A stretch of DNA of 18,845 nucleotides, taken from IMG/VR virus record IMGVR_UViG_3300013383_000091; one strand, written 5' to 3'. The notes beneath the pieces were generated by a model. That model saw nothing but the letters and a program-made list of their open reading frames with translations. It was not told the DNA's origin and made no database searches. The position numbers and the translations under genes were made by a program. This DNA comes from a virus. How positions within the stretch are numbered: position 1 is the stretch's first letter; each line of letters opens with the position of its first letter. Below are positions 1 through 18,845 of the stretch, in pieces.

Positions 1-188
1 GGTGGGAGGCATGGGCGTTTGGGAATTTTTTCCCAATCTGTTTTTTATTTGTGTTTTTTGTTTTTTGCTTTTTGTTGTTTTTTTTGGTTCTAATCATTTT
101 GTTATCTCCTTTGTTTTCTATTTATTATGATACCACGTTTTTTATTTTCCGCACGGCGTGTTTAAAAAAATTGCCGTATTTTTTTTGT

Positions 189-234
189 TACGGTTACGTA
201 ACCGTAGGTCATATAGGCTAATGACCATTAGCCT
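189..234. promoter_or_regulatory. Two palindromes upstream of the ITR promoter (candidate operator or origin-protein binding sites)
   Basis: TACGGTTACGTAACCGTA (189..206) is a perfect 18-bp palindrome. AGGCTAATG-AC-CATTAGCCT (215..234) has 9-bp arms. Both lie 65-110 bp upstream of the candidate -10. Function is inferred. Confidence 0.4.
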
Positions 235-275
235 TGTTTCGGGAATATTCGTTCTCTTTTTTCGGCGTGTCGCGC

Positions 276-304
276 TTGTTTTGTTTCTAAGTTTGTTGTA
301 TATT
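276..304 (+). promoter_or_regulatory. Candidate early promoter of the left ITR
   Basis: -35 TTGTTT (276..281), 17-nt spacer, -10 TATATT (299..304). It lies ~45 nt upstream of the first ITR gene in an AT-rich leader. The match was judged by eye only. Confidence 0.4.
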
Positions 305-351
305 TATTTATGTCAGCAAAGGTTGCTGGCGAAGTTAGGGAAGGTTGCACA

Positions 352-549
352 ATGCTGAATATCAATATGGCTACCGCTAGGGATTACGTCGAAAACTACA
401 TCACCAACAGCGGCATGGACGTTTCCGACTATTGCATCGATCAGGCGGCATCCGACCTTGTGGACTACGTGGACACTTACGGCGTTGACGGCTATGATGG
501 CGTCCCGTCCGATGAATTCACGGATATCGTGGCACAATCTGCTCGCTGA
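352..549 (+). CDS. Hypothetical very acidic 65-aa early protein (ITR copy 1)
   Basis: ATG at 352 is preceded by GGGAAGG (338..344) with a 7-nt spacer; stop TGA at 547..549. The product has 11 Asp + 2 Glu versus 2 Arg and a recurring (V/S)DY motif. The longer track ORF from 310 has no RBS. An identical copy lies at 18297..18494. Confidence 0.7.
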   Translation: MLNINMATARDYVENYITNSGMDVSDYCIDQAASDLVDYVDTYGVDGYDGVPSDEFTDIVAQSAR

Positions 550-565
550 AAGAGAGGATCATATC

Positions 566-811
566 ATGGCAACGAAGAATGTGGCTCGCTTTATCATTTG
601 GAATGACGGCTATAGGCTTGAAATGTTCAATGCGGGGGATGATGTCGATGTTTCGCTGGACGGTGTTCAGCCGCTTGCGAGAATGTTGAAGGGCATTATC
701 GACGTGGCTCAGACTCGCTACCCGCATCATACCATTGAGCTGAATCGTGCGAAGTTCTGCGAGGAAGAGGTTGGTAAGCCGTTTCTCGTGGGTGTGGTGA
801 GTATCGTATGA
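566..811 (+). CDS. Hypothetical 81-aa early protein (ITR copy 1)
   Basis: ATG at 566 is preceded by GAGAGGA (552..558) with a 7-nt spacer; stop TGA at 809..811. The track ORF from 458 overlaps the previous gene and lacks an RBS. An identical copy lies at 18035..18280. Confidence 0.7.
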   Translation: MATKNVARFIIWNDGYRLEMFNAGDDVDVSLDGVQPLARMLKGIIDVAQTRYPHHTIELNRAKFCEEEVGKPFLVGVVSIV

Positions 812-870
812 CGCCGCGCAAGGGGCGTCCCTGCCGCCTGTATGACGTTCGGATTGACGATGGTGACTGA
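808..870 (+). pseudogene. 20-codon remnant of the third right-end early gene, cut by the ITR boundary
   Basis: An ATGA stop/start overlap occurs at 808..811, exactly as at the right end (18035..18038). Codons 1-4 (MTPR) match the 81-aa gene 17793..18038. The sequence then diverges at the ITR edge and stops after 20 codons (MTPRKGRPCRLYDVRIDDGD). Confidence 0.4.
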
Positions 871-890: not shown

Positions 891-924
891 GCAAAAACCC
901 CGGCCGTATGGTCGGGGTTTTTGC
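891..924. terminator. Bidirectional rho-independent terminator between convergent left-ITR genes and the lysis cassette
   Basis: GCAAAAACCCCGGCC / GGTCGGGGTTTTTGC forms a 15-bp stem (one G-U pair) with loop GTAT. A5/T5 runs at the stem base give a U-tract in either orientation. Confidence 0.8.
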
Positions 925-979: not shown

Positions 980-1624
980 TCACTTGAGGTAGGGCGTGCC
1001 GTTTGCCGGCCGATATGCGAGATAACGTGTTTTGCCGCTTGCTCCGGTGTAGTGCGCCCACTCATAGCCGTCCGCAATAATAGTGCCGCTTGCGAGATTC
1101 ACCGTTTCGCCACGCCGGTAGGTGGCTACGATTCTGCCGGATGTGCTTGGCCTGTCGCGCACGTTGAGCGCCGTCACGTTGACTGTGTACTTGCGTGTCG
1201 TAACACCGGCTGCGGTTTTATCCAGCACGCGGGGGTGGAGGTAGCCGATGATCCCGTTTTTGCCGATGTTCATGGCCTTGGCCTTGTTGGGGTTCTGGCT
1301 CACGCAATGGACGGTGTTGCCGTTGTCCTTCAGCACGATGGCCACGTGATTCATTCCGGCGCGTTTCCAGAACGCCACGTCACCTTTTACCGGCGTGTAG
1401 GACGCCGGTTTTTTGGAGAACACGCGCTGTAGTACGGTATCCTGAGCATATTTGGTGAGGTACACGCTTGCCGCGTATCCGTCCGTGGTGTTTGTGTCCC
1501 GTTGGGGAACATTGTATACGTGTTGGGCGTAGTGGCTCCACAAGTCCCAGCATTGCCCGCCATATGCGTGATCTACGTCTATGGTCTTGCCTTCGATCGA
1601 TTTAATCCATTCGTCTATGGTCAT
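980..1624 (-). CDS. Endolysin, N-terminal CHAP peptidase/amidase plus C-terminal SH3b-like wall-binding domain
   Basis: 214 aa. CHAP signature AYGGQCWDLW (catalytic Cys) with a downstream NHVAIV His. The C-terminal YTVNVTALNVRDRPSTSGRIVATYRRGETV...GYEWAHY is SH3b-like. RBS AAAGGAAGGA lies 7 nt before the ATG. Terminal position after the holin. Confidence 0.9.
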   Translation of the reverse strand: MTIDEWIKSIEGKTIDVDHAYGGQCWDLWSHYAQHVYNVPQRDTNTTDGYAASVYLTKYAQDTVLQRVFSKKPASYTPVKGDVAFWKRAGMNHVAIVLKDNGNTVHCVSQNPNKAKAMNIGKNGIIGYLHPRVLDKTAAGVTTRKYTVNVTALNVRDRPSTSGRIVATYRRGETVNLASGTIIADGYEWAHYTGASGKTRYLAYRPANGTPYLK

Positions 1625-2211: not shown

Positions 2212-3276
2212 TTATTTGCCTAGCAAATCGCCCACGATGAGCGCAAAATCCGATTTGACCTGTGGCGTGTCGAAACGCAGCCGTCCCAAGCGATAGCCGG
2301 TGGTGAGCCGTCGTGTCACATCGTCCGATTTTTTGATATACCACGTGTCTTCGTCAACGTGTGTGGCGCACAGTGTGTAGGTGGGGCGATGGTTGTCCTT
2401 GGGGATACGACGTGACACGTATTGGCTTACGGTGCCGTCCGTGTCCATGCTGACCCAGATGCCGAAACGCGCGTAATCCTCCGTGTCCAGCACGTAGGAA
2501 AGTTCCGCCGTATCGGGTATGTCCGCGATCAGGCCGTCCGTTTCGTCCCGGAATTTGTTACGTATCGCATAATCGGCATAGTCTGCATCATATGATTCAA
2601 GGAACCGCCCGAACTTGGATTGAGCGACTTTCGCACTGAAGCCGCCATAGTCCGCCAGCTCCAAGCAGATGAAGCCGCCACAATACAAGCGGTATTGCTG
2701 TTGCTTGGACTGCTGCACGCCGATATCCAACCGGTATTTCGCAAAATACGGATTAGCCTTCTGGACGGCATTGGACAAAAATAGAACCTTTGTCCTATCC
2801 TGCCACCTGTCCACGGTGTTGTAGAATTCGGAAAAAGAATTGACCTCATTGCTGAGGAAACGCAGATTATCTGGGAATATCTCGTCGAAAATGATGAGAT
2901 GCACTTTGGGGTAGGCCACGGACTTCAGCCCCCCGGCCTGTGATAGGGCAATGAAGTAACAGCATGTGCGCCAGTCCTTCTCGTCCCAATCGCACTTGTG
3001 CAATTGGCCTTTTTCCCCGTTGACGCGAAACTCGTAGTCGGGGAAAAACGCCTGTATGTCCTTGAAGAACGTCTCTTTACGGTGCTGTTCCACGTCGGTG
3101 CGGCGCAGATAGATGAATTCGTGGCCGTGCTTCAGATATTCGCGGATTCCATACCTTTTCGCGGCAAACGTCTTGCCCAGTCCGCGCGCGCCGATCACGA
3201 AATTCCACGGGGCATTCCGGGTGAGTAGATTGTGTAGGTCGTAGTAATCGCCTTCGTTCAGCGTCTTCAACGCCAT
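2212..3276 (-). CDS. DNA encapsidation (packaging) ATPase, phi29 gp16-like
   Basis: 354 aa. Walker A NFVIGARGLGKT is nearly identical to the remembered phi29 gp16 NFVIGARGIGKS, followed by FIYLRR. Walker B is HLIIFDEI. RBS GAGAGGTGG precedes the ATG. Confidence 0.93.
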   Translation of the reverse strand: MALKTLNEGDYYDLHNLLTRNAPWNFVIGARGLGKTFAAKRYGIREYLKHGHEFIYLRRTDVEQHRKETFFKDIQAFFPDYEFRVNGEKGQLHKCDWDEKDWRTCCYFIALSQAGGLKSVAYPKVHLIIFDEIFPDNLRFLSNEVNSFSEFYNTVDRWQDRTKVLFLSNAVQKANPYFAKYRLDIGVQQSKQQQYRLYCGGFICLELADYGGFSAKVAQSKFGRFLESYDADYADYAIRNKFRDETDGLIADIPDTAELSYVLDTEDYARFGIWVSMDTDGTVSQYVSRRIPKDNHRPTYTLCATHVDEDTWYIKKSDDVTRRLTTGYRLGRLRFDTPQVKSDFALIVGDLLGK

Positions 3277-3414: not shown

Positions 3415-4635
3415 CTAGAAGGCTGGTGGATTACTTTTCCCGTCCCACACGCTCAGCAGACTATAGGCGGTATTATAGCGCGTCGTATACGGCGTGAAGG
3501 GGTAGGTGGCTAGGATATTCGCCTTCAGCCCCGTAAGATCGCTTGCCTTGGGCACCTTCAAAGCGTTCGCCGGTGACTGATGATAGGCCGTGACCCAAAG
3601 AATCTGCATCCTCATATCGTCATATGTCTTCGGATATCCGGCGTAATCCTCCGCGAACTGCCTGCGCTGGCCTTCGCGTGATTCGCTTCTCGCCGCCCAT
3701 GTGCGGAACGCGGCCGCTTCGGCGGAGGTCATGGCGCGACTGAAGTCACCACCCGATTCCATGAGCGCCGCCACCTGCGGGGCGGCCGTTTTGAACGCCT
3801 GATAGCCGGTGGCGTCCGCTTCCCTCATTTTTTTCAACACCTCTAGGCGGCGTCCGAAACTCCATTGCGCTATCCCAATGCCCTGAAGGTTCGATTCCAC
3901 GGCGTCCCACCGGCATGATGATTCCACCGAGCCGACCACATACAAGGCGTAAGAGTTTTCCGAGCTTACCGAGCTGGACGGCGTGGAGTGTCCTTTGTCG
4001 TCCGTGGGCTGTGACTGCGACGCCTTTTCCACCCAATTGTTGGCCGTTGATTTCCAGAAGGTGCGTACTTTGGAGCCATGGTTGTCTGTCTCATGGAGGT
4101 AGAGGTGATCGCCCTCACTGTGAATCCACGCGCCGCCACGGGTTGAATCGGATGAGCCTTTGTTGTCGTCCCCGGTGGGGTTATTCTCGGTGGGCGTGCT
4201 ACCGCCACCGGTGCCCAAGTTCTTGGGGTGGAGATAGCCGAGAAACGCGGTGAGCGTGAAGGTCATGCGTTGCGCGGGGTTAGGGTTCTGCGACAATACC
4301 GTTATACTGTTGTCGTGCACGCCGTCTTCGAGCACTATGCTCACGTGCGAGCCGGTGTGTTCGCTGGAGAAATTCCAGAACGCCACATCACCTTTCACCG
4401 GCGAATAGTCGGCGGGCTTCTTCTCGAATATCTCTCCCATTTTCGCATTCGTGGGAAATCGTGTGTAATTGCCTTCCGCATAACCAGTGGGCGTAATGCA
4501 TTCGCTGACCGAGCAGCCATATAAGTCCATGCAGTATTTCGCCCACAAGTCCCAGCATTGCGCACCATACGCGCCGTCCATATCCCAGTAGCGCCCCTGC
4601 GTTTGCGCTACCCATTGGTCGAAAGTAATAGCCAT
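3415..4635 (-). CDS. Tail-associated cell-wall hydrolase: N-terminal CHAP plus C-terminal phi29 gp13-like lysozyme domain
   Basis: 406 aa. The N-terminus is a paralogue of the endolysin CHAP (AYGAQCWDLW, KKPADYSPVKGDVAFW, SQNPN, GYLHP). A Gly/Ser/Thr linker follows. The C-terminal VESSCRWDAVES...GIGIAQWS resembles the gp13 lysozyme motif SES...GLVQW. Its position corresponds to phi29 gene 13. Confidence 0.85.
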   Translation of the reverse strand: MAITFDQWVAQTQGRYWDMDGAYGAQCWDLWAKYCMDLYGCSVSECITPTGYAEGNYTRFPTNAKMGEIFEKKPADYSPVKGDVAFWNFSSEHTGSHVSIVLEDGVHDNSITVLSQNPNPAQRMTFTLTAFLGYLHPKNLGTGGGSTPTENNPTGDDNKGSSDSTRGGAWIHSEGDHLYLHETDNHGSKVRTFWKSTANNWVEKASQSQPTDDKGHSTPSSSVSSENSYALYVVGSVESSCRWDAVESNLQGIGIAQWSFGRRLEVLKKMREADATGYQAFKTAAPQVAALMESGGDFSRAMTSAEAAAFRTWAARSESREGQRRQFAEDYAGYPKTYDDMRMQILWVTAYHQSPANALKVPKASDLTGLKANILATYPFTPYTTRYNTAYSLLSVWDGKSNPPAF

Positions 4636-4663
4636 GTCACCATATTATAGTGACATGGCTATT
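4627..4663 (-). other. Perfect 14-bp hairpin enclosing the tail lysin start codon, with TATAAT in the loop
   Basis: AATAGCCATGTCAC (4627..4640) pairs with GTGACATGGCTATT (4650..4663). The 9-nt loop reads TATAATATG on the minus strand. The ATG at 4633..4635 lies inside the stem, and no SD precedes it. Confidence 0.6.
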
Positions 4664-4679
4664 GCTGTTATGTGATTTC

Positions 4680-6206
4680 CTAGAAGCCTGCCGGTACTAC
4701 AAGAGAGCCGGAGAGAATGCCCGTCGCGTCCATATTGGCGGTGTTTTGTACGCTAAGTGTGCTGCCATCCAGTGCTGTAAAGCACTTGCCGTCATAGGAC
4801 GGGAAGTATTGCGGATTCCCGACAGCAGCCCACGAGGGGAGCTTGAAGACGCGGTTCCCGTTGGCCGGTTTAGTGGTGTAGTTGCACTTGTATCCAATAT
4901 ACAGCATACCGTCGCGCTCGAAGATGTTAACGTAATCCCATGTGCCGAGAATCTGCGAAGCGTCAGGCATACCGTAGTTTGTCGGCCACAGATCGCAATT
5001 GGCTGCAACACAATGCGCAATCCAATTGCCGGCAAGAGCGTAGCCAGAGCGGTTGAGGTGTGCGCCGTCACCGTCATCGCCGCCACCTTCGCCCTGAGAG
5101 GCCACTACGCCAATGCGGTAGCCACCTTCATGGATGCGGACGTAATCATAGCCGCAGTCTTTGAGGTTTAAGGTCAGGACACGGTAGACGCCGAGACGGT
5201 CTGATCGATTGGTGCCATGTGTCTTGTTTTGCGTCAACGTCTGCCCTACTGCCAAGGTCATGGGGCATACGTGGATTTCAGCATTGGGGGCGTCGCTGTG
5301 GATGGATTCCATGAGATTGCGTGCTCTGTTCATCACAAACGCTTCGGTGGTCTTGTTTTGTGCAATGCCTGTCGCGTCGTTTTGTCCTCCAATGATGATT
5401 ACAGCGGAAACCTTGTCTTTGTCTGGCACGTCGTTCCAAATATCAATGAAACGTCCATCATCCCCTATGACGGCGAAGCCTCCAGCCGAAGATCCCTTGT
5501 AGTAAAAACGAGTCGGATTGAGCCGGTTTTTGATAGCGACGGCGGGCGATTCGTCGATATGCTTCGCGCCGGAATAGTATCCATCCACCCAACTGTCACC
5601 CAATACCACGACATAGTCCTTGAGCTTTGCCGGTACGCTGGCCAATTCGAGAGCTTCCGTGGCTTCGGTGCTAGCCTTGTCCCACTTTGTCCTTGCGGCT
5701 ATAGCTTTGTCCGTGGTTTCGGAGCCTAGTGCTGTCAATGCCGATTTGGAGGCGGTTGCGTCCGTGCCGGCCTTATCCCACTTGGCCTTGGAGGCGCTGG
5801 CTTCATCTACGGTTTCTGTGCCGAGTGCGGCTAATGCCGCGCCATTCATGGCCGCGTCCGTGCCGGCCTTATCCCACTTGGCCTTGGAGGCGCTGGCTTC
5901 ATCTGCGGTTTCCGTGCCGAGTGCGGCTAATGCCGCACCATTCATGGCCGCGTCCGTACCCGCCTTGTCCCATTTGGTCTTGGCTGCTTTGGCGGCGTCC
6001 ACGGTATTGTCTCCCGTCAGTGTTTTCAGTACTTCCGTGTCGTGCGTGTCGGTCGCTTCGAGGGTTTCGATGCGGTTCAAATGCTTGCCGAGCGTATCGT
6101 CGATGGTATGCATTGAATCGTTGTAGCCGTCGCGCAAGTCGGCGGGGTCATCGTCCCCATAGAGATTCAACCCATAATTGTTGGTTTTCGTGTAGGTGGT
6201 TGCCAT
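4680..6206 (-). CDS. Tail fibre/appendage protein: N-terminal anchor motif, 32-aa tandem-repeat stalk, SGNH/GDSL esterase domain, C-terminal putative receptor-binding domain
   Basis: 508 aa. It carries 3.5 repeats of KWDKAGTDAAMNGAALAALGTETxDEASASKA. SGNH blocks are present: VVLGDSW (block I), GGQND (block III), DGAHLN (block V). Its position corresponds to phi29 gene 12 (appendage). Confidence 0.85.
   Translation of the reverse strand: MATTYTKTNNYGLNLYGDDDPADLRDGYNDSMHTIDDTLGKHLNRIETLEATDTHDTEVLKTLTGDNTVDAAKAAKTKWDKAGTDAAMNGAALAALGTETADEASASKAKWDKAGTDAAMNGAALAALGTETVDEASASKAKWDKAGTDATASKSALTALGSETTDKAIAARTKWDKASTEATEALELASVPAKLKDYVVVLGDSWVDGYYSGAKHIDESPAVAIKNRLNPTRFYYKGSSAGGFAVIGDDGRFIDIWNDVPDKDKVSAVIIIGGQNDATGIAQNKTTEAFVMNRARNLMESIHSDAPNAEIHVCPMTLAVGQTLTQNKTHGTNRSDRLGVYRVLTLNLKDCGYDYVRIHEGGYRIGVVASQGEGGGDDGDGAHLNRSGYALAGNWIAHCVAANCDLWPTNYGMPDASQILGTWDYVNIFERDGMLYIGYKCNYTTKPANGNRVFKLPSWAAVGNPQYFPSYDGKCFTALDGSTLSVQNTANMDATGILSGSLVVPAGF
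5637..5975. repeat. In-frame 96-bp tandem repeats (3.5 units) inside the tail fibre gene
   Basis: Units 5758..5853 and 5854..5949 differ at only 3 of 96 positions. Flanking units are progressively diverged. Confidence 0.9.
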
Positions 6207-7747: not shown

Positions 7748-8680
7748 TTATTCCTCCATATTCCCGTCCGTATCCAACAGTCCGCCTGAAGTGGTGTCGT
7801 TCCATTCGATTCCCACCGGGAGTTCGAATTCAAATAATCGGTTGATCGTGTCGCAAGCTTGTTGGCGTGCCTTGAGGTAAGAGAGCCGGAACACGTTGGT
7901 TTTGCTGTTGCCGGCCGTGACTTCCGATTCCAACAATCGCTCCTTTTTCTCGGTGGTGCTGTTGTCGATGCCCATGTAGTTCACAAGCTCGTTCCAGATC
8001 TGCGTTTTCGTGGTGATAAGCTTATCGGCCATGAATGGCGTGATGTTGGGGAATGTCTGGAAAAGCCCGGTGATGTCCGCACTGTCGTAAGCATAGATAT
8101 AGGGATCACCGTCCTCTCGCGCCTTCATAAGATTCTGGGCGGTGAGCTTGCTTGTTTCCGATGTGGCGATGATCAGCGGCACCGAGAGATTGTCGAGGTT
8201 CACGTCCAGCGCCCTGTCGGCCATGGCCAATCGTGTGGCATAATTCCACATGACATCGATCATGGTACAGCGCAAACCGTTGTCCCATATGGGCACGCAC
8301 TGTTTCGAGCCGATCTGAGGATGCGAGTAATTCGTGGCCAGCGGCTGAAATGTAGTGGGATTATTGTAGTTGTTGACGCCGCCGATGTTCCCGGCCGTGA
8401 CCATGAACCGGTGCAGTCGCTTATCCGCGAAAAACAGCGCCAAACCGTTTTCAAACAGAGTCAGCTCCAGATACCGTTCATCGATGTAGGGTGGAAGGTT
8501 CTTCCATTTGAAGCGCGATATGGCCAGCATTTCGATGAGCTTCATATACTGGTTGATGCGCAGACTTTGCCGCATTTCCGGTAGATTCAAGTTGCCCCAC
8601 ATGGAGCCGAGAACGCTCTGATTGTCCCAGTGTGCGGCCTTGCGTGCGCTGTTTCGTTTTCCTCTGCTCAAAAGTTTCAC
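7748..8680 (-). CDS. Portal (head-tail connector) protein, phi29 gp10-like
   Basis: 310 aa (phi29 gp10 is about 309 aa). FKWKNLPPYIDERYLE matches remembered gp10 FEWENLPPTINPSFLE. KKERLLESEV matches KKERMVTDEV, and RQQACDTINRLFE matches REEACEKINELYG. The N-terminus is basic. The GTG start has a weak RBS, so the start is uncertain. Confidence 0.92.
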   Translation of the reverse strand: MKLLSRGKRNSARKAAHWDNQSVLGSMWGNLNLPEMRQSLRINQYMKLIEMLAISRFKWKNLPPYIDERYLELTLFENGLALFFADKRLHRFMVTAGNIGGVNNYNNPTTFQPLATNYSHPQIGSKQCVPIWDNGLRCTMIDVMWNYATRLAMADRALDVNLDNLSVPLIIATSETSKLTAQNLMKAREDGDPYIYAYDSADITGLFQTFPNITPFMADKLITTKTQIWNELVNYMGIDNSTTEKKERLLESEVTAGNSKTNVFRLSYLKARQQACDTINRLFEFELPVGIEWNDTTSGGLLDTDGNMEE

Positions 8681-8741: not shown

Positions 8742-10979
8742 TCAGTAGACGATGCCGTCCAACGGCGCGTTGTCCGCGTAATCGGTGACGCCTATCTTGC
8801 TTGGGTCAGTCCATACGGTGACGCCGCTCTCAAAAATACCTTTGATGGTGAGCCGGTACTCCTCCGGGCACGTGGAACTTCTCACATACAGCTCATGCAC
8901 CTTCCAATATGTGAAATTAGACATTGCCATAAGATTCGCCGGCAACATCATGAAGCGCTGGACGTAATACCCGTATCTCAACCACACCTCTCCGATACTT
9001 CGCATTGCGGCGGGCGTGATCTGGCGGAAGCGTACAAGCACGCCGATCAGACCGTTGGCAAGGTTGAAGCTATCGCCGCCCAATGCGCCGGACGTGGTGG
9101 GCGCAACCGTCTGCGTCTGTTGCACTTGGGCGTTGATGCCGGCTATGGTGTTCTCGTAATCGCCTTTTGCGGTGGCCTGTGCGAGCGCGCGGTTCATATC
9201 AGCGAGTTGCATGGTCTGCGAGTTGGAGAGATTCGTAGACGCCAAGGCATAGGCGTTGGCCTGTGAAGTGGTGGCATTGTTCGTGGCTGTCTGATTCGCT
9301 AATTGCGTGTTGGCCGTGTCCACGTTGTTCTGGTAGGTCTGATCATTCGCCCATGCGCCGATGGCCGCACCGGCCACCGCGCCGACCGCGCCGCCGACGT
9401 TGCCGCCTGCGAGATTGCCCAACGCGTTCGCCGCGCCGCTTCCGATGGTATTAAGTTGGCTCATGGAGTTGCTGAAGCTCAGGTTTTTCAGCGTAAGATC
9501 GTTGCCCATTTGCGCGGAAGTGTTTGAAATGCTGTTCATGGCGTTGCGGTTGGACGTGGCCAAACGATTCGCGGCACTCGAATAGCTGGTGCCGACTTCG
9601 GCGGCGCGATACGCGTTGTTGATGCCCATTTGCGTTTTCTGCTGTGTCCAGTCGGCCGACTTGCGGGCATATGCGCGCGTGTACGAGCTGTTCGCCAATG
9701 CTAGTGCGGAGCCGTTGTTGACGGCCATGAAGGTGGGGAAATTCGTCGTACCGAAGGCGGCGTTCAACATTTCGCCGCTATCGATGGGTAGCCCAAGATC
9801 ATTCGCAAGCGGGGAACGCTGGGAGAGAGCGGAGGCATGATAGCCGCGAGCGTAGAAGTTCAGGCGGGGGGACGGTGGCGCGTAATCCCACGATTCCCTG
9901 ATCACTAAATCATTCGACGGTACCTGTTCCGGCTCGTATGTGATCACATCGCCGTTCAGGCATGAGCACTCCACATAGGAGTATGGCGCGGTGCGGAATT
10001 TTTTTAGGTATTTGTAGCGGTCTGGTAATTTGAAGTTGTCGCGGAAGTTTTTGATGGTGATGATGTCCGTATAGCGTGAATCGGACTTGCCGGTGCGCAC
10101 GCGCATCCGATAGCACTTGCCGTGCCAATCAACGCCGGTTTTGAATGCGGTGTTGACCGACTCCTGTTTTTCCAAGAGTCTCGCCGGCAATGGGGGGACG
10201 GCGTAGATGCCGCAGATCCCTTGTGTGACCCATGGGTAATCCGCGCCGGCCGCAAGCAGTGCGCCCAAGTCGGTTGCCACCGTGAGATAATAGACGGCGG
10301 TGCCGTTCAGGTGGCTCTCGAATGCGCCGCCGTCCGCCGTGGTGGTCTTGGGTGCGCTCTCGGTGCCGGGGTCGGCTTCGAGCTGGGTGGTGCTGACCAC
10401 GATCACGCCAAAATCATATTGCGTGCCATTCTCACTCACCGGGATAAGCGACTTGTATTGTTCGCCGGCGATAACAGTGGTTTTACCGGTGTCCAAGCCT
10501 TCCGGCAAATCGAGATATTCACGACCATAATCCGCCCACTGGTTTTCATTCGCCACGCCGACGTGTCCGCGCTCCACGTAGGCGTTGCCGAGCGTTATGT
10601 TGAATTGAAAGCTCTGCCACACGTCGAGCTGGATGTTGAGTTGCGTGGTCTGCGCGTTGACGTAATCGACCGTCTGAATGAAGTAATACCAGCTGCGAGG
10701 CGTGTCAAAATCGTATTCGTTGGTGGCCACAAGGTAGTTGTATTTGGACGCTTGGGCGAACGGCACGGGGACGCGCACGGGTAGACCGTATTTCGCCATG
10801 GTGCACCCCTTGAATTCAAGACCGTCGAGCGAATCGAAATAATCCTGTTGCGCCTTTTCGTCCACGAAGCGCACGATATCCCTATATCCCATATCCCATG
10901 TGACGTTACAGAGTTTGAATGTCGTGCTCGGTGGCCATTTCGCATAGCTGAAGTTGACGGGTAGATCATTGGCACTCAT
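8742..10979 (-). CDS. Tail knob / distal tube protein, phi29 gp9-like
   Basis: 745 aa from the ATG at 10979 (RBS AAAGGAA 6 nt upstream). YNYLVATNEYDF...WYYFIQTVDYVNAQTTQLNIQLDVWQSF...YVERGHV parallels remembered gp9 SYIMFQNADYGNKWFYAFVTELEF...FEIDVLQTWMF...IVREHV. A Gly/Ala-rich hydrophobic loop (GGNVGGAVGAVAGAAIGAW) and the C-terminal YGYYVQR...GVTVWTD also parallel gp9. Confidence 0.9.
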   Translation of the reverse strand: MSANDLPVNFSYAKWPPSTTFKLCNVTWDMGYRDIVRFVDEKAQQDYFDSLDGLEFKGCTMAKYGLPVRVPVPFAQASKYNYLVATNEYDFDTPRSWYYFIQTVDYVNAQTTQLNIQLDVWQSFQFNITLGNAYVERGHVGVANENQWADYGREYLDLPEGLDTGKTTVIAGEQYKSLIPVSENGTQYDFGVIVVSTTQLEADPGTESAPKTTTADGGAFESHLNGTAVYYLTVATDLGALLAAGADYPWVTQGICGIYAVPPLPARLLEKQESVNTAFKTGVDWHGKCYRMRVRTGKSDSRYTDIITIKNFRDNFKLPDRYKYLKKFRTAPYSYVECSCLNGDVITYEPEQVPSNDLVIRESWDYAPPSPRLNFYARGYHASALSQRSPLANDLGLPIDSGEMLNAAFGTTNFPTFMAVNNGSALALANSSYTRAYARKSADWTQQKTQMGINNAYRAAEVGTSYSSAANRLATSNRNAMNSISNTSAQMGNDLTLKNLSFSNSMSQLNTIGSGAANALGNLAGGNVGGAVGAVAGAAIGAWANDQTYQNNVDTANTQLANQTATNNATTSQANAYALASTNLSNSQTMQLADMNRALAQATAKGDYENTIAGINAQVQQTQTVAPTTSGALGGDSFNLANGLIGVLVRFRQITPAAMRSIGEVWLRYGYYVQRFMMLPANLMAMSNFTYWKVHELYVRSSTCPEEYRLTIKGIFESGVTVWTDPSKIGVTDYADNAPLDGIVY

Positions 10980-10998
10980 ATGTCGTTCCTTTCGATAT

Positions 10999-11036
10999 GG
11001 AAAATAGGATGCAGTGTTATCGCACTGCATCCTATT
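10999..11036 (-). terminator. Leaky rho-independent terminator after the major capsid gene
   Basis: A 14-bp perfect stem pairs 11003..11016 with 11023..11036, with a 6-nt loop. UUUUCC follows on the minus strand. It lies immediately upstream of the tail knob RBS. Confidence 0.6.
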
Positions 11037-11057: not shown

Positions 11058-12785
11058 TCAGGCGGTGACGGTGACGTTGTGCGAAGCGGTCACGCCGGCG
11101 AATTTCGCGGTGACGGCCACGGCACTTGCGTTGGCCGTTTCGCCGGTGACTACGCCGGTTGGTGAGACGGTGGCGTTCTCGCCGCTTGCCCAAGTGGCGA
11201 GTTTGGTCACGTCTTCGGTGTTGCCGTCGTTCTTGGTGACGATGGCTTTCAGGCTGATATTCTGACCGACCTTGACGGTGCTTGCGCCTTGCACTTCGAG
11301 CTTGGTGATCGCGCCGGATTTGAATCCGCCTACCCATGTTCCGACCACCGGCACCGCAAGGGATGCGGAAATGGTCTGGTCGATTTCCGGCGTGCTTGGG
11401 TTGATGTACGTGGCCTGTGCGGTGACGGTGATCGTGTCGGCGGTTTCGTCAAGGCCGCACCGGATGATGCCGTCGTTATCCACCGAAGTAAACTGGGAGC
11501 TTGCACCGGTGAGCTTGTAGGTGATGCCGACCGGCTGGAAGCTTGCGCTTGCCTTGTTGTCGCTCGAAATATCGGACACAACCTGAACCAAGTCTCCACG
11601 GTACACGTTCTGCGGGGTGGCGCTGTTTTCACCGTATTTCTTGAGCCTGATCTGGAATACCGGCTTCGACGTGGTGAGCGTATCCGGGAGCGTGACGGAA
11701 TCGGTGGAGCCGGTGCCAGTCCAGAAGAGCACCGCATTGGAGAACGGGTTCGGGGTGACGCTACCCCTGTGCTTGTAGAATATGTTGCGCGTGCCGTCGA
11801 TGGGGTTGACGGGGCTGTTGGTGGTTTCCAACATCTCATCCCAGCAGAAGAAGAAGTCTTCCGTGGTGAGAATGGCCTGCACCTTGCCTTCGGTGCCGCC
11901 AATGCCAAACATATCCTCAGGAATGGGGATGATGCGATAGGGCACGTTGGCGCGGTCGATGTTGAACGCGGCCGCCAATGCTTCGACGTTCAGGGCGGCG
12001 ATCACCTGCGGCGTGGCGAAGAGAATGGCTTCACTGTCACGCCATGGAGTGACCCAGCTCATGGCGTTGTAGCGGGGCATGGCCGACATAGGGGATGCCT
12101 TGAGTTCGTTCGCGGTCTGCTGGATGAGACGAAGAAGATTCTTTGCGTCCGTTTCGGTGGAATTGGCCGCGCCCACGTCGGCGGTATGCACGCGCCAAAA
12201 TCCGCCCTTGCGCGCGTATTCCGCGAAACACTGCGTCTTCATGACATACATATCATTACGGTCGCTCAAAATCGGCGCGTTCATGATCTCGGCAATGTAA
12301 TCCGACATGCCGCTTTCCCCGTCGAAAGCCGTCAGCAAAGCGTCTTCCGGGATGGTGACGGGGTAGTAGTGATCGAACGTGAGCGGGTGGAACACACTCG
12401 CAGTTGGCACGTTGTAACGCCCGTACACGTCATCGCCCAAGTACTCCTTATTGAAATTACGGGTGCGAGCCTGTACGAGGCCGACCGCCGCCTGCTCGTA
12501 GGTGGAGCCGTAGCGCTTCAGTGTGCGCGGGGAGCCGATCAGCCTCAAGGGGTCATCCCAGTCCGCGTGCTGGACATAGAGCCCGATCAGGCGCTGAATG
12601 AGTACGCCGGTGAATTCATCGCGCAGATACGGAAAATTGCGCATGGTGTCCACGGCGTTCCTGATGTTGCCCTGTGTTGCGGCGGGGATACGGGTCTGGA
12701 ATTGCGGTGAGGTGGCGTTGCGCACGGCGTTGAAGATCTCAACGTCCCCCTTGCCGGCGAGCGGCCTTACATTGGTATCGGTCAT
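11058..12785 (-). CDS. Major capsid protein, phi29 gp8-like, with C-terminal Ig-like (Big_2-type) domains
   Basis: 575 aa. RBS AGGAAGGA lies 7 nt upstream. VEIFNAVRNA..., DEFTGVLIQRLIG, ALLTAFDGESGMSDYIAEIMNAP and LNVEALAAAFNIDRANV parallel remembered gp8 segments. The last ~85 aa (KLEVQGASTVKVGQNISLKAIV...VTAKFAGVTASHNVTVTA) is Big_2-like, preceded by a second Ig-like segment. Confidence 0.92.
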   Translation of the reverse strand: MTDTNVRPLAGKGDVEIFNAVRNATSPQFQTRIPAATQGNIRNAVDTMRNFPYLRDEFTGVLIQRLIGLYVQHADWDDPLRLIGSPRTLKRYGSTYEQAAVGLVQARTRNFNKEYLGDDVYGRYNVPTASVFHPLTFDHYYPVTIPEDALLTAFDGESGMSDYIAEIMNAPILSDRNDMYVMKTQCFAEYARKGGFWRVHTADVGAANSTETDAKNLLRLIQQTANELKASPMSAMPRYNAMSWVTPWRDSEAILFATPQVIAALNVEALAAAFNIDRANVPYRIIPIPEDMFGIGGTEGKVQAILTTEDFFFCWDEMLETTNSPVNPIDGTRNIFYKHRGSVTPNPFSNAVLFWTGTGSTDSVTLPDTLTTSKPVFQIRLKKYGENSATPQNVYRGDLVQVVSDISSDNKASASFQPVGITYKLTGASSQFTSVDNDGIIRCGLDETADTITVTAQATYINPSTPEIDQTISASLAVPVVGTWVGGFKSGAITKLEVQGASTVKVGQNISLKAIVTKNDGNTEDVTKLATWASGENATVSPTGVVTGETANASAVAVTAKFAGVTASHNVTVTA

Positions 12786-13126: not shown

Positions 13127-13136
13127 TTCGAGCATG

Positions 13137-13163
13137 AAAAAGGCCGCACAATCACGTGCGGCC
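13137..13163 (-). terminator. Rho-independent terminator ending the early/replication operon
   Basis: GGCCGCAC / GTGCGGCC forms an 8-bp GC-rich stem (13142..13149 / 13156..13163) with a 6-nt loop. UUUUU (13137..13141) follows on the minus strand. Confidence 0.75.
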
Positions 13164-13306
13164 AAAACTGTCTTATGAGAGTGCGGGTTGATGCCGTAAG
13201 GCCGGCATACCACATGCACGAAATGTCACGATGGGCGGCGTTTTCAGCCGTGGTTGTCCCGTCGCGTTTCTCCTAGTCGGCTATCGGCACTCCGAAGACA
13301 CGCATA

Positions 13307-14767
13307 TTATAGCATGACGGGTGTACCGTAATCGTCCATGACCTCCACGCCATGACGGAATTGATCGTAGGGGATGGGACGCCGGAAGAGGTTGCCGGCC
13401 ATGACCACATCCACGCCGCCGTCAGTCCGCCACCCTTGATAGCGGTTCAGGGCGAGTATGGTCACTTTGTCATATTCGGCGCTGATCTTCCATTTCCCTA
13501 ATTCTGTCGGATGCAATGCGCACGCCTTGGGCGGTTCATGGCCTAAAAGTATGCACCCGTCCGTGTTCGCATATATCAGTCGGCCGGCGTTCGCTCGGCA
13601 TACGCCGATCAGTCGGCGGCGGGCGTAGGCGTTGACCCACATTGGCACTGGGAGATAGTCGGTTTTTAGGGTTGATTCGTCGCGTGTGGCGGGAGCCCAT
13701 TCCAAGGTTTTCCCGTCCGTGCTTTTTGGCATGAGCACCGCGCCTTTGGGGAGTGCGGCCATTTTGCCTACAAGAGCGTTCATGATGAGTTTCGCCATTT
13801 GACGCCTGTTGCCTGTCTCGCGCTGTTTTCGGGTGCCCCATTCGTCCACAAAGCCGGTGAAAAAGCCTTTGGACTGGCGGAATTTCCACCCGCCAAGACG
13901 GCGATAGATCGACACGTCGTAATTCTCTTCAAGCAATCTTTGGTCGATGTCGGTGAGCGTCATGGTGATGTATCCGTGCGTGCTGGTTAGTCGGGTCGCG
14001 CCACGTGTCAAGGTGTGCCCGTCGCTCAAAAAGGGGTAGCCGTCCGGCTTGAGGTCGGCACGGAAGGTCATGGTATCCGCGTGCAATGGCATGTCACTGT
14101 CAGGCTTGTATTCGCCGTCATAATGTTCCGGTGTCCCGTATGGTAAAAATTCGTCTCGTAGTATGGATGGGTACATGCTGTTGCAATCGATGTCGATGGC
14201 TGCACCCCAATGCCCTTCCTTGGCGGTCATGAAGCCGCCGATATATCCGCCGTGCAGCGTCTTTTTCGTCTCGGATTCGAGCTGGGGGAAGCGGCTTAGG
14301 TACCATGGGTAATCGCCGCCGTGATAGGCGCTCATGCTTGCCGCGCCGGCCGTGATCTTCGCCAGTCCCGCGTGTTCGTACATGCGTAGGATGTCCAAGA
14401 GTTGCGTGTCCGTGTTATCGTCTTCGTCCAAGGTGACGCGGTAGCCGTCCCTCAGCAGATTGGACACTTCATGGAATTTCAGCCAATTATCCTTGTCGAT
14501 CATGACGGAAAACATGAAGAAACGGCCGGTTTTCGACACTATCGCGTCCCAGCTCATGTAGGCGCGGTGCTGATTGTGGGGCATGTGCGCGGTCACGTGC
14601 GCCATGAAGCCCGACAGTACGCTTGGGTCGCTCACGTATACCATAGTCTTACCGCCTGTCGTGGCGTGCGCCAATAAGGCGGTGGGCGTCGTATCCGGCC
14701 ATATGGTGCGGTCGGTGAAGCGTATGATGTTGTCCGCGCACCATAGACCGATATGTTCTCGTGTCAT
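13307..14767 (-). CDS. Protein-primed family B DNA polymerase (phi29 gp2-like), compact and motif-divergent
   Basis: 486 aa from the ATG at 14767; the track TTG start is 3 codons upstream. Motif A is DIDCNSMYPS...LPYGTP. Motif B is KLIMNALVGK. Motif C is IYANTDG. The TPR1/TPR2-equivalent insertions align with remembered phi29 sequence. See the finding on exonuclease motifs. Confidence 0.93.
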   Translation of the reverse strand: MTREHIGLWCADNIIRFTDRTIWPDTTPTALLAHATTGGKTMVYVSDPSVLSGFMAHVTAHMPHNQHRAYMSWDAIVSKTGRFFMFSVMIDKDNWLKFHEVSNLLRDGYRVTLDEDDNTDTQLLDILRMYEHAGLAKITAGAASMSAYHGGDYPWYLSRFPQLESETKKTLHGGYIGGFMTAKEGHWGAAIDIDCNSMYPSILRDEFLPYGTPEHYDGEYKPDSDMPLHADTMTFRADLKPDGYPFLSDGHTLTRGATRLTSTHGYITMTLTDIDQRLLEENYDVSIYRRLGGWKFRQSKGFFTGFVDEWGTRKQRETGNRRQMAKLIMNALVGKMAALPKGAVLMPKSTDGKTLEWAPATRDESTLKTDYLPVPMWVNAYARRRLIGVCRANAGRLIYANTDGCILLGHEPPKACALHPTELGKWKISAEYDKVTILALNRYQGWRTDGGVDVVMAGNLFRRPIPYDQFRHGVEVMDDYGTPVML

Positions 14768-14788
14768 GATTTGCAACCTTAGCCAATG

Positions 14789-15730
14789 TCAGGCGAGTTC
14801 CTTGGCGAGTTTCAGAAACCCCTCGAAACTCTGGCGTGCGCGTGCGTGCGCGGTGCTGTCCTGTCCGAAACGTGACGTGATTTTCCCGGTGGGTGATTCC
14901 ACCCAGTTGAAGACGGTTTGCGCCACGTCGGTTTGCTCGATCAGCGCGCGTTTCCGCGCCGTGGAGAGTTGGCGGAATCGCTTCAGTCGTTTGGAGCCTA
15001 CGGACGCGGCGATGGCCTTTTCGAATGCGGCGTAGCGGTTCGCTCTCATATATTTCGGCCACGTGCCCTGATCATAGGGTTGCCCACTGCGTCCCGTCTT
15101 GGTGGCGGTGGGCTCTCTGCCGACCTTGTGGCCGAGCATGGCCGCGGTTTCGCGGATGTCCCTGATCAATTCCTTGCGGTGGCCTGATTCCAGCTGGCTC
15201 ATGACATATGCCCTGTCCTGTAGTGTATTGGTCATGCGCAAAAAGTCGGTGAGCTTGCTGTCTGTGATCTGAGCGCTCTCGTAGGCGTCTCCGGTGGTGC
15301 CGGCCAATTCCGCTTGACGGCGTTCCAGAACACTTTGTTTCGGCAATGCCTGTACTTTGTTCCATTCCGCTATCTTCGCTTGCGCCGTCCTGATCTTACG
15401 CTGCTGTTGGCGCAACAGTTTGCGTCGTTTTGCCACGGGTTCGGCGGCGATCTGCTGATCGGTGATGGGGGCGCGACTGGCGAGCATCCTGTCTTTGCTT
15501 GTGGGCTTTTCGACGGCGCTTGGATGCCATTCGGTTTTTGCGGCCGTGTTGATGGCCTGTTGTTTCTGCTGTTCCCATTCGCGGCCGAGCGTGTTGGCGA
15601 TGTTGGCAAGCTGTTTGTCGGCGGTTTTCGCGAGATTGCCGGTGGAGTACACGCCAAGTTGCTTGATGTTGCGCGCCATGCGAGCCTGTGCGGCCTGTTT
15701 CGCCTTGACGTGCCGCTGTTTCTTCGCCAT
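14789..15730 (-). CDS. Putative terminal protein (replication primer)
   Basis: 313 aa, basic and Lys/Arg/Gln-rich. It lies immediately upstream of the polymerase gene, as TP genes do in phi29-like phages. RBS AAGGCGG lies 7 nt upstream. No motif was recognised, so function is inferred from position only. Confidence 0.6.
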   Translation of the reverse strand: MAKKQRHVKAKQAAQARMARNIKQLGVYSTGNLAKTADKQLANIANTLGREWEQQKQQAINTAAKTEWHPSAVEKPTSKDRMLASRAPITDQQIAAEPVAKRRKLLRQQQRKIRTAQAKIAEWNKVQALPKQSVLERRQAELAGTTGDAYESAQITDSKLTDFLRMTNTLQDRAYVMSQLESGHRKELIRDIRETAAMLGHKVGREPTATKTGRSGQPYDQGTWPKYMRANRYAAFEKAIAASVGSKRLKRFRQLSTARKRALIEQTDVAQTVFNWVESPTGKITSRFGQDSTAHARARQSFEGFLKLAKELA

Positions 15731-15819: not shown

Positions 15820-16275
15820 TCACTTGGTCGGCTTCGCTTCGCCGTCGTTCTCGACGGGTTCGATACTGAAGAACTTGAAGCCGCGACGGGAGCGACGTTC
15901 CACGACCTTGATGGCGAGCGGTTCAGCCCACGTGTCGGGCGTGCCGAAAATGCCGAACATGGTGTTGAGTCCGGCCGCGAGGGTGGGGCTTGTGGCGGCG
16001 TAGGCGGTGCCGTCTTCGGACACAATGATCACGCGGACGGTGTTTGAAATTTCGCCCGTCTGATCGTCGGTGACCTGTACGGCCTGTGCGATGGCGTTGA
16101 CCATGTCGATCTGCTCGTTGAGGTGTTCGTCAAGCTTGACGGCGTTCTGGAGTGCCGCGTACAGCCTGATCTTGCCCTCACGGGTGGAAGTGTCGATGAA
16201 GTGCTGGACGGTGCCGAGCGTGGTGTTTTCGGTGTTGAAGGCCACGATCTCGGTGTTGGCGGTGTTGTTTTCCAT
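15820..16275 (-). CDS. Hypothetical early protein, possibly a phage SSB
   Basis: 151 aa from the ATG at 16275 (RBS GAAAGG 9 nt upstream). The pattern VRVIIVSEDGTAYAATSPTLAAGLNTMFGIFGTPDTW...IKVVERRSRRGFKFFSIE resembles the lactococcal/staphylococcal phage SSB family as I remember it. It sits upstream of TP and polymerase. The functional call is weak. Confidence 0.55.
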   Translation of the reverse strand: MENNTANTEIVAFNTENTTLGTVQHFIDTSTREGKIRLYAALQNAVKLDEHLNEQIDMVNAIAQAVQVTDDQTGEISNTVRVIIVSEDGTAYAATSPTLAAGLNTMFGIFGTPDTWAEPLAIKVVERRSRRGFKFFSIEPVENDGEAKPTK

Positions 16276-16334
16276 GATGTTCAACCTTTCTTAGTTGTTT
16301 GTTTCGAGCTTTTGCTCTAAAATTTTTTATAGTC

Positions 16335-16631
16335 TTACTCGTTGTTTTTTTCAAGCTCGGCGTGTCGCTTATGTTCACCCGGTTCCCACGGTTGCGGCGC
16401 GTCAAAAACCGCATTGCCGTAAAAATCTTTTTCCGACATGTGCACACGTTGGCTCATGATGTGGATGGTGCGCGGAATGAAGTTCGGCCACAGTTTCTTG
16501 GCGCGTGCGGCATAGGCTTCACGGCTGTTCATGCGGCCGTCCACGACATGTTTGCAGGCCATAAAATCGCCGTCCACAAGCTCCATGCCCTCTACGACGG
16601 CGTAGACGCGGGTTCTGACGATATCGGACAT
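16335..16631 (-). CDS. Hypothetical early protein (98 aa)
   Basis: ATG at 16631 with RBS AAGAGG 6 nt upstream. It follows the stop of the preceding gene closely. No similarity was recognised. Confidence 0.6.
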   Translation of the reverse strand: MSDIVRTRVYAVVEGMELVDGDFMACKHVVDGRMNSREAYAARAKKLWPNFIPRTIHIMSQRVHMSEKDFYGNAVFDAPQPWEPGEHKRHAELEKNNE

Positions 16632-16643
16632 TTGCAACCTCTT

Positions 16644-17792: not shown

Positions 17793-18038
17793 TCAAACCT
17801 CTTCCCTAAAAGGGCTGTCCGCCCATTGCCGGGCGAATTTCAACATATCCATTGCATCAATGATCTTCATACCATCGTCAATGGCAAAGGCGTCGCATAT
17901 CCACGTCCAAGTCCAGCCGTCGATACACACCCAGAATTTGTAGTGCGGTATATCGCCGCCACGGTAGGCGTACCGGTATCGATAGGGGTAGCCGGTACGC
18001 CGATCATAGCGGGTAAAGCGCCCCATGCGCGGCGTCAT
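17793..18038 (-). CDS. Hypothetical Arg/Tyr/Trp-rich early protein (81 aa) whose first 4 codons lie inside the right ITR
   Basis: The ATG at 18038 overlaps the stop of the ITR gene (ATGA). The N-terminus is RFTRYDRRTGYPYRYRYAYRGGD. Only a truncated 20-codon version exists at the left end. Confidence 0.6.
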   Translation of the reverse strand: MTPRMGRFTRYDRRTGYPYRYRYAYRGGDIPHYKFWVCIDGWTWTWICDAFAIDDGMKIIDAMDMLKFARQWADSPFREEV

Positions 18039-18280
18039 ACGATACTCACCACACCCACGAGAAACGGCTTACCAACCTCTTCCTCGCAGAACTTCGCACG
18101 ATTCAGCTCAATGGTATGATGCGGGTAGCGAGTCTGAGCCACGTCGATAATGCCCTTCAACATTCTCGCAAGCGGCTGAACACCGTCCAGCGAAACATCG
18201 ACATCATCCCCCGCATTGAACATTTCAAGCCTATAGCCGTCATTCCAAATGATAAAGCGAGCCACATTCTTCGTTGCCAT
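18035..18280 (-). CDS. Hypothetical 81-aa early protein (ITR copy 2)
   Basis: Mirror image of 566..811; identical translation. Confidence 0.7.
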   Translation of the reverse strand: MATKNVARFIIWNDGYRLEMFNAGDDVDVSLDGVQPLARMLKGIIDVAQTRYPHHTIELNRAKFCEEEVGKPFLVGVVSIV

Positions 18281-18296
18281 GATATGATCCTCTCTT

Positions 18297-18494
18297 TCAG
18301 CGAGCAGATTGTGCCACGATATCCGTGAATTCATCGGACGGGACGCCATCATAGCCGTCAACGCCGTAAGTGTCCACGTAGTCCACAAGGTCGGATGCCG
18401 CCTGATCGATGCAATAGTCGGAAACGTCCATGCCGCTGTTGGTGATGTAGTTTTCGACGTAATCCCTAGCGGTAGCCATATTGATATTCAGCAT
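18297..18494 (-). CDS. Hypothetical very acidic 65-aa early protein (ITR copy 2)
   Basis: Mirror image of 352..549; identical translation. Confidence 0.7.
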   Translation of the reverse strand: MLNINMATARDYVENYITNSGMDVSDYCIDQAASDLVDYVDTYGVDGYDGVPSDEFTDIVAQSAR

Positions 18495-18541
18495 TGTGCA
18501 ACCTTCCCTAACTTCGCCAGCAACCTTTGCTGACATAAATA

Positions 18542-18570
18542 AATATACAACAAACTTAGAAACAAAACAA
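18542..18570 (-). promoter_or_regulatory. Candidate early promoter of the right ITR, likely driving the whole early operon
   Basis: Mirror of 276..304 (TTGTTT-17-TATATT). Confidence 0.4.
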
Positions 18571-18611
18571 GCGCGACACGCCGAAAAAAGAGAACGAATA
18601 TTCCCGAAACA

Positions 18612-18657
18612 AGGCTAATGGTCATTAGCCTATATGACCTACGGTTACGTAACCGTA
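18612..18657. promoter_or_regulatory. Right-ITR copies of the two palindromes
   Basis: AGGCTAATGGTCATTAGCCT (18612..18631) and TACGGTTACGTAACCGTA (18640..18657), mirroring 189..234. Confidence 0.4.
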
Positions 18658-18845
18658 ACAAAAAAAATACGGCAATTTTTTTAAACACGCCGTGCGGAAA
18701 ATAAAAAACGTGGTATCATAATAAATAGAAAACAAAGGAGATAACAAAATGATTAGAACCAAAAAAAACAACAAAAAGCAAAAAACAAAAAACACAAATA
18801 AAAAACAGATTGGGAAAAAATTCCCAAACGCCCATGCCTCCCACC

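Follow-up and report, generated by a model that had tools for sequence, protein, structure and literature searches.

An 820-bp perfect inverted repeat enclosing a predicted promoter and two small genes at both ends of a phi29-like phage genome

The inverted terminal repeats (ITRs) of phi29-like phages are usually regarded as short non-coding origins, of 6 bp in phi29 (PMC11476376), 25-30 bp in Clostridium perfringens podophages (PMC3362512) and 90 bp in Microbacterium phage Curie (PMC11320940). Here we describe a stretch of virus DNA of 18,845 nucleotides (nt), IMG/VR record IMGVR_UViG_3300013383_000091 (called the window, meaning the whole stretch analysed), which begins and ends with an 820-bp inverted repeat enclosing a predicted promoter cassette and two complete genes, ORF-A and ORF-B. 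The ITRs of BadAztec1, Av-1 and Anjali were measured as 259 nt, 211 nt at 95% identity and 16-19 nt. Streptococcus phages Cp-1 and Cp-7 are, like the source of the window, protein-primed podophages with promoter elements in the ITR, but the perfect repeat of Cp-1 is 236 bp long and non-coding, and its first genes lie outside it. Lactococcus phage asccphi28 (EU438902) is a phi29-like podophage of 18.8 kb, whose long ITR also has putative inward promoters at both ends; its ITR is annotated as 577 bp (609 nt at 98.7% by BLAST), however, with no coding sequence inside, and its gene order and host are different.

Outside this group, adenovirus and PRD1 also have protein-primed linear genomes with two ends kept identical, but their repeats are of about 100-200 bp and non-coding, and they belong to other virus lineages. 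The terminal repeats of poxviruses and of Streptomyces linear replicons hold whole genes in two copies, with boundaries moved by recombination. Poxvirus ends are hairpins without terminal protein; Streptomyces terminal repeats range from kilobases to hundreds of kilobases and are subject to end patching. Whole-gene duplication is shared between these systems and the window, but the likeness is functional only, without homology or common end chemistry. Gene-containing terminal repeats are not new in principle; what is new here is their degree and the clear scar left in a phi29-like phage.

ITRs were surveyed in about 70 IMG/VR contigs and reference genomes, about 50 metagenome contigs and three further isolates (about 125 phi29-like genomes). 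The ITR of the window was the longest among them. No ITR of more than 609 nt, or enclosing a complete gene, was found in the other genomes surveyed, where k-mer-limited assemblies (repeats of exactly 119 nt) may hide longer ones. An earlier note on this DNA, made from the letters alone, had called the length unusual for the phage type, and it does exceed any found in phi29-like phages, the previous record being the 577 bp of asccphi28.

When the window was compared with its own reverse complement, exactly 820 bases were identical, base 821 was mismatched and six further matches followed (827 nt at 99.9%), confirming the exact, perfect repeat proposed in the earlier note. No other long inverted repeat comparable to it was present elsewhere in the window, and so long a match is effectively impossible by chance. 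The right arm opened into a long minus-strand operon of early, replication, structural and lysis genes. The features at and around the repeat were as follows.

1-820, plus strand: left ITR arm, perfectly identical to the right arm; at least three further terminal nt (CCC) lie outside the window
18026-18845, minus strand: right ITR arm, perfectly identical to the left arm
352-549, plus strand (second copy 18297-18494, minus strand): ORF-A, 65 aa, acidic, pI 4.05
566-811, plus strand (second copy 18035-18280, minus strand): ORF-B, 81 aa
17793-18038, minus strand: gene 3, 81 aa, with its opening 13 nt within the repeat and complete at the right end only
808-870, plus strand: stub ORF of 20 codons, the first four (MTPR) from gene 3 and the last 16 (KGRPCRLYDVRIDDGD, then stop) a relic of the ancestral late-end gene
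889-926, strandless: predicted bidirectional intrinsic terminator with a 17-bp self-complementary stem, -31.6 and -28.8 kcal/mol on the two strands, z about -7

Exact matches to the ORF-B, endolysin and gene 3 proteins were sought in public assemblies, yielding dozens of independent contigs. Both repeat/unique junctions recurred in more than 15 public metagenome assemblies (MEGAHIT, SPAdes and Logan). The left junction, leading from the repeat into the stub, the terminator and the endolysin gene, was present in at least five samples, and the right junction in at least 13, JGI and Logan assemblies included. MEGAHIT contigs (k=119) of 17,443 nt consisted of the 17,205-nt unique part plus 119 nt of the repeat at each end. 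Both junctions lay on one contig in ERZ27300232 k119_133571 and in ERZ27300231 k119_84760, each end of which began at repeat position 702. SPAdes contigs of 17,205 and 17,203 nt began at base 821 or 822 and were the unique part alone, and repeat-only contigs of 823-875 nt stopped exactly at base 820. Because both junctions and the repeat-only contigs recurred across many samples, the repeat was not a fold-back or a single-sample chimera. The flank next to the left junction was orthologous to the late-end gene of relatives, unlike the expectation for a fold-back or a chimera. An assembly-artefact origin was largely refuted by these data; both junctions, for which a check by reads had been suggested beforehand, were seen in assembled contigs of many samples, and also together on single contigs.

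The repeat ended 13 nt into gene 3, a gene with a dN/dS of 0.135. The stop codon of ORF-B overlapped an ATG at 808, which opened gene 3 on the right arm and the 20-codon stub on the left. At the joint, gene 3 read CGCGCATGGGGCG and the left end CGCGCAAGGGGCG, both encoding R-(M/K)-G-R in frame, and a junction patch (815-827) was identical between the two ends at 12 of its 13 positions. Since the stub fuses the start of gene 3 in frame to the relic of a late gene, one end was copied onto the other. The expansion is recent: an older gene was overwritten and a 16-codon scar was left. The terminator came next, with the left-end cassette on one side and the 3' end of the endolysin and lysis genes of the minus strand on the other. 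It had been placed at 891..924, facing the left cassette, and a strong 17-bp stem was indeed found there, spanning the slightly wider 889-926; a hairpin lay at the same position in relatives L004 and L118. We consider it probable (roughly 0.8) that the repeat is a genuine ITR of a linear protein-primed phage, with terminal origins and an inward early cassette, which grew by copying of one end at a microhomology and whose arms were homogenised.

In relatives with assembled ends the ITR was 55-514 nt long, and its inner limit normally coincided with the start codon of the first gene or lay a short way beyond it; this gene differed between the two ends. The relatives measured were as follows.

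L004: repeat 322 nt, first ATG at 319
L045: repeat 357 nt, first ATG at 354
BadAztec1: repeat 259 nt, first ATG at 256
BD811P2: repeat at least 55 nt, ending ATGAA
L085: repeat 487 nt, first ATG at 479
L057: repeat 514 nt, first ATG at 466 (the repeat ends 16 codons in)

In L047 (IMGVR_UViG_3300045988_025728) the repeat was at least 119 nt, a k-mer-limited value, and included at least 29 codons of the first gene. Its late-end gene was an in-frame chimera of the N-terminus of the early-end gene and the conserved C-terminus of the late gene, and L047 is a second example of a repeat boundary moving inside genes. The record of BP1 (L001, PQ571273) has 379 nt preceding the left repeat arm, with bases 1-242 an 88% direct copy of 662-903; it was not used for ITR length because its ends look misassembled or mixed.

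The window shares with this Bifidobacterium/Actinomyces clade the genome architecture, the promoter motif CGGCGTGTCG, the inward cassettes and, at the late end, a small gene with a bidirectional terminator behind it. It differs in that the clade repeats stop at the first start codon or at most about 29 codons beyond it, none enclosing a whole gene, whereas the repeat of the window extends 465 nt past the usual boundary. Comparison of the sequences suggests that the inner boundary of the repeat is mobile in the clade. Every relative with assembled ends had the same cassette of promoter, ribosome-binding site (RBS) and ATG in both repeats. Inward early transcription from both ends, as proposed in the earlier note, would follow from the cassette in both arms; it is a trait of the clade, not special here.

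Sister phages with about 86% nucleotide identity likely show the ancestral state. The early end of L114-L116 had the order ORF-A'-ORF-B-gene 3-gene 4, and the contigs broke 27-55 nt before the ATG of ORF-A; this distance is about one k-mer and would place the boundary of the sister repeat near base 355. At the late ends (L117 and L118), an ORF-A paralogue was followed by an 85-aa gene and then by the terminator. The 85-aa gene ended in RKGRRCRLYTVSIDDGD or CRSRKGRRCRLYTVSIDDGD and a stop codon, and window bases 821-926 matched the end of this gene plus the terminator: from base 821, the left-unique sequence was orthologous to the last 16 codons of the sister late gene and to its terminator. 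At either end of the sister phages (L114 and L118, which come from the one sample ERR10692696, and L117) the first gene was moreover a diverged ORF-A paralogue not included in the perfect repeat, which suggests an older inverted duplication that has since partly decayed.

The GC content was 34.7% over bases 1-300 and 50.9% over bases 301-827, and because of this contrast the outer third of the repeat was taken as non-coding and T-rich and the inner two thirds as coding-like. The non-coding part contained the following features.

1-36, plus strand: putative terminal origin region, including the hairpin-forming TTGGGAATTTTTTCCCAA (19-36); the origin role is proposed from protein-primed systems
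37-130, plus strand: T-rich tract, 69% T and 21% GC
189-206 (second copy 18640-18657), strandless: perfect 18-bp palindrome TACGGTTACGTAACCGTA
263-304, plus strand: putative promoter region, with motif CGGCGTGTCG (263-272) and a TG plus TATATT -10 element (297-304)

GGTGGGA and a GGGAA..TTTTT..CCC hairpin were common to the end of the window and that of L057, and the T-rich tract is a possible DNA-unwinding region. In L004 and L006, no other part of the non-coding repeat was as well conserved as a 21-nt segment around the palindrome (187-207), the neighbouring non-coding sequence not being conserved; the palindrome is likely a binding site or operator for a dimeric regulator. The motif CGGCGTGTCG had 11 matches in the window at no more than one mismatch, against 3.3 expected, and stood shortly before a -10 element in the repeats of all relatives examined. 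It is from this conservation only that we infer promoter activity of the cassette at 263-304. A third exact copy of CGGCGTGTCG (16358-16367, plus strand) lay just upstream of the single-stranded DNA-binding protein (SSB) gene, antisense in the 3' end of ORF 16335-16637 and with a T-rich tract upstream, and its position was kept in BP1, L004 and L006. This copy could be an antisense promoter or a regulator site, or could be conserved merely through the coding region.

ORF-A and ORF-B lay wholly inside both arms, each preceded by a Shine-Dalgarno (SD) site. ORF-B had a dN/dS of 0.19 against a homologue at 78% identity; in ORF-A the synonymous sites were saturated, with a dN of 0.215. AlphaFold predicted a three-helix bundle for ORF-A (pLDDT 86) and a beta-beta-beta-alpha-beta-beta fold for ORF-B (pLDDT 84). 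On account of the purifying selection and the confident folds, both are taken as real genes, which bears out the claim that the repeat carries a promoter-like element and two complete genes in two copies. For ORF-A, an earlier start at ATG 310 had been favoured; this codon coincides with the point where the transcript is predicted to begin, L005 has a stop codon after it and conservation of the coding type is missing there, and it was given up for the ATG at 352, the most likely start and the only one with a conserved SD site and conservation among homologues. Neither protein had a Pfam or PHROGs match even at E 10, and Foldseek against PDB and BFVD gave nothing below E 0.25. A HicB-like fold for ORF-B and the late-end gene was an impression that Foldseek did not support. 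In a search of 5.8 billion protein clusters (about 15 billion sequences), homologues of each protein fell into two to three clusters, all of the same phage group. ORF-A, which is acidic, may mimic DNA or a protein.

In four other contigs window base 1 was preceded by CCC: three MEGAHIT contigs, each of another sample, began CCCGGTGGGAGG, three bases further out, and the fourth was the SPAdes contig L014 described below. The start of other assemblies read CCCGGTGGG. With CCC extending each end, the repeat is therefore at least 823 nt long. The two ends of the window are symmetric because one collapsed repeat edge was used twice, and they were set by assembly. For this reason the argument of the earlier note for sliding-back initiation from a terminal GG fails: GG is an assembly end, beyond which other contigs continue with CCC. 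Three identical terminal bases, CCC, would still fit sliding-back, and a rule of three identical terminal bases has been noted for phi29-like phages (PMC6266182). The terminal bases of relative L057 differed from those of the window. In L014 (ERZ26858499 NODE_22171, SPAdes), bases 1-55 consisted of 52 nt (near-)identical to contigs of Lachnospiraceae metagenome-assembled genomes and then CCC, followed by the phage end. This extension was rejected as a phage end or integration site, since the Lachnospiraceae contigs continue differently after CCC; it is a chimeric join, located at a genome terminus of very high coverage.

These elements would fit together as follows. The outer part of the repeat (terminal bases, hairpin and AT-rich tract) would be the replication origin at both ends, and the inner part (palindrome, CGGCGTGTCG, -10 element and RBS) an early expression cassette firing inward. 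In the clade the cassette normally closes at a start codon, which belongs to another first gene at one end than at the other. Here the replication-gene end, where ORF-A, ORF-B and gene 3 are native, would have had both ORFs and 13 nt from the beginning of gene 3 copied onto the lysis-gene end, lengthening the repeat by about 465 nt; ORF-B and the start of gene 3 would have been copied in a single event, and ORF-A possibly so. The most likely route, in which the switch step is our reconstruction, would be a polymerase template switch or illegitimate recombination at the 12/13-nt microhomology CGCGCA[T/A]GGGGCG. The copy would have replaced most of the small late-end gene, of which the last 16 codons remained, fused in frame. 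The arms would then have been kept identical by end-to-end homogenisation (panhandle or strand-exchange repair). The outcome would be two promoter-driven copies of ORF-A and ORF-B per genome and the loss of the ancestral late-end gene, with transcription of the left copy running toward the terminator at 889-926 and stopping there.

The two arms were compared between the contigs that hold both junctions. In k119_133571 both arms had the single-nucleotide polymorphism C716T; in k119_84760 neither arm did. The arms truly co-vary, because at k=119 differing arms would have given longer, asymmetric contig ends. From this we infer a homogenisation mechanism; the covariation fits panhandle or homology-restoring models of end repair, which have been discussed for adenovirus and PRD1 (PMC11886824). 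It is conceivable, and put forward only tentatively, that the repeats of the clade are moving conversion tracts, with an inner edge that shifts by in-frame recombination between end genes. Shifted boundaries were seen in L047 (29 shared codons), in L057 (16 codons) and in the window (two genes plus four codons).

The window as a whole was a near-complete linear phi29-like genome of 54.7% GC with nearly all genes on the minus strand. Its source is a phi29-like Bifidobacterium podophage; the closest isolates, Bifidobacterium phages BP1 and BD811P2, were 74-78% identical in nucleotide sequence over parts of the genome. The main genes outside the repeat were as follows.

980-1624, minus strand: CHAP endolysin (Pfam)
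2212-3276: gp16-type packaging ATPase (Pfam)
7748-8680: connector (Pfam)
8742-11030: tail knob (Pfam)
11058-12785: phi29-type major capsid protein (Pfam)
13307-14776, minus strand: protein-primed family-B DNA polymerase (Pfam PF03175, E 1.7e-22)
14789-15730, minus strand: candidate terminal protein, 313 aa, pI 10.6, assigned by position only
15820-16284: phi29-type SSB (Pfam)

The phi29-type packaging and structural module and the SSB matched PF05894, PF05352, PF25622, PF20934 and PF17427; an adaptor/lower collar gene was identified via PHROG, and a holin gene was found as well. The complete phi29-like linear genome proposed in the earlier note was thus recovered as a near-complete one, with polymerase, gp16 ATPase, connector, capsid, tail knob and SSB present. 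The polymerase also matched the structure of the phi29 polymerase (1XHX, E 2.2e-35), and protein priming is well supported by the polymerase and the gene set; the genome ends would be capped by protein. Of the two priming proteins that had been claimed, the polymerase stood, whereas the terminal protein was backed by position, size and pI and not by homology. Its gene lies between those of SSB and polymerase, an SSB-TP-Pol order also found in Actinomyces phage Av-1, where the terminal protein (TP) is annotated.

A structured RNA candidate of about 170 nt (13136-13306, minus strand) lay between the polymerase stop codon and the scaffold gene. In an alignment of nine relatives, 31 of its 48 predicted pairs showed compensatory changes; its fold comprised a long helix closing the structure, a junction of several helices and a terminal hairpin having the invariant loop GUGAUU plus a U-run, and a TGGTAGAAT -10 element came after it. 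No match to Rfam RF00044, the packaging RNA (pRNA), was found anywhere in the window, and the candidate itself had no Rfam match. A pRNA inside the repeat, as at the left end of phi29, was considered and dropped, the repeat having no Rfam match and the structured candidate lying elsewhere; the latter may be the packaging RNA of the clade. Between the tail-fibre gene and a 406-aa CHAP/lysozyme gene was a 21-nt inverted repeat (4624-4666; 90% complementary, 1-nt spacer), which could act as terminator or operator. A 96-nt tandem duplication (5758-5983, 94% identical) that encodes repeated AKWDKAGTDAAMNGAALAALGTET units lay in the 508-aa SGNH/GDSL tail-fibre gene.

Several points weigh against a genuine ITR extended by end copying. 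About twofold depth over the repeat had been expected; in ERZ26858499 the coverage was 2373 for the repeat contig and 1644 for the unique contig, so that the repeat was raised, but this sole depth ratio was 1.44, not 2. The candidate terminal protein matched nothing in Pfam, PHROG or PDB and showed no similarity to its counterpart in Av-1. A generic sigma-70 scan did not call a promoter at 263-304; the pattern rules of the generic scan for promoters and terminators passed over the clade promoter as well as the terminator at 889-926, for which conservation and folding were used instead. ORF-A of the window was closer to the late-end paralogue of the sister phages (71% aa) than to their early-end paralogue. 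Because of this affinity a single early-to-late copy is insufficient, and at least one further exchange, or a different ancestor, is required. Finally, a history in two steps would leave an identical scar.

It is rather doubtful that the duplication is adaptive, and not neutral, in doubling the dose of the immediate-early ORF-A and ORF-B and allowing their expression whichever end enters first. Both genes are under purifying selection and stand first behind the terminal promoter, the variant is widespread across many samples, and the left cassette sits where phi29 has its right-end early operon. In phi29 that operon enters the cell first. Set against this, the Pfam, PHROGs and Foldseek searches gave no function for either protein, the sister phages have single copies, and the expansion destroyed another conserved gene.

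A history in two steps, in which the repeat at both ends first extended as far as the start codon of a third gene and most of the left-end gene was later lost by an in-frame internal deletion, seems unlikely. A boundary just past a start codon is the rule in relatives and occurs here too (ATG at 808, boundary at 820), and judging from the ORF-A types the two ends may have exchanged sequence more than once. But this history requires one extra event, the late-end gene of the sisters begins MMNLNAY and not MTPR, and the joint falls precisely on the 12/13-nt patch that gene 3 has in common with the late gene, as a single microhomology-mediated switch predicts. That the repeat is an assembly artefact (an amplification fold-back chimera or an end copied by the assembler), with ORF-A and ORF-B truly at one end only, is extremely improbable: short-read assemblers do collapse inverted repeats, the symmetric ends of the window are a by-product of a single repeat edge used twice and L014 shows that chimeric joins occur at this terminus (52 nt of Lachnospiraceae sequence joined at CCC), but both junctions recur across samples and three assemblers and share single contigs, the repeat-only contigs break exactly at 820 with higher coverage, and an orthologue of the relatives' late-end gene at the left junction is not what a fold-back would give.

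The genuine ITR favoured here places a full early cassette in the terminal repeat of a widespread gut phage, and offers a case for studying how protein-primed genomes keep, extend and homogenise their ends and how early genes located at the ends are gained and lost. It bears on the length of ITR that such replicons tolerate, and on orthogonal replication systems based on phi29. Short-read assemblies routinely truncate or collapse such repeats, as in the versions of this genome of 17,443 and 17,205 nt, and virome catalogues therefore understate both ITR length and genome completeness. If the clade repeats are indeed moving conversion tracts, these would let protein-primed phages duplicate, swap and overwrite immediate-early genes, possibly including anti-defence genes, and would permit early-gene expression from whichever end enters the cell first.

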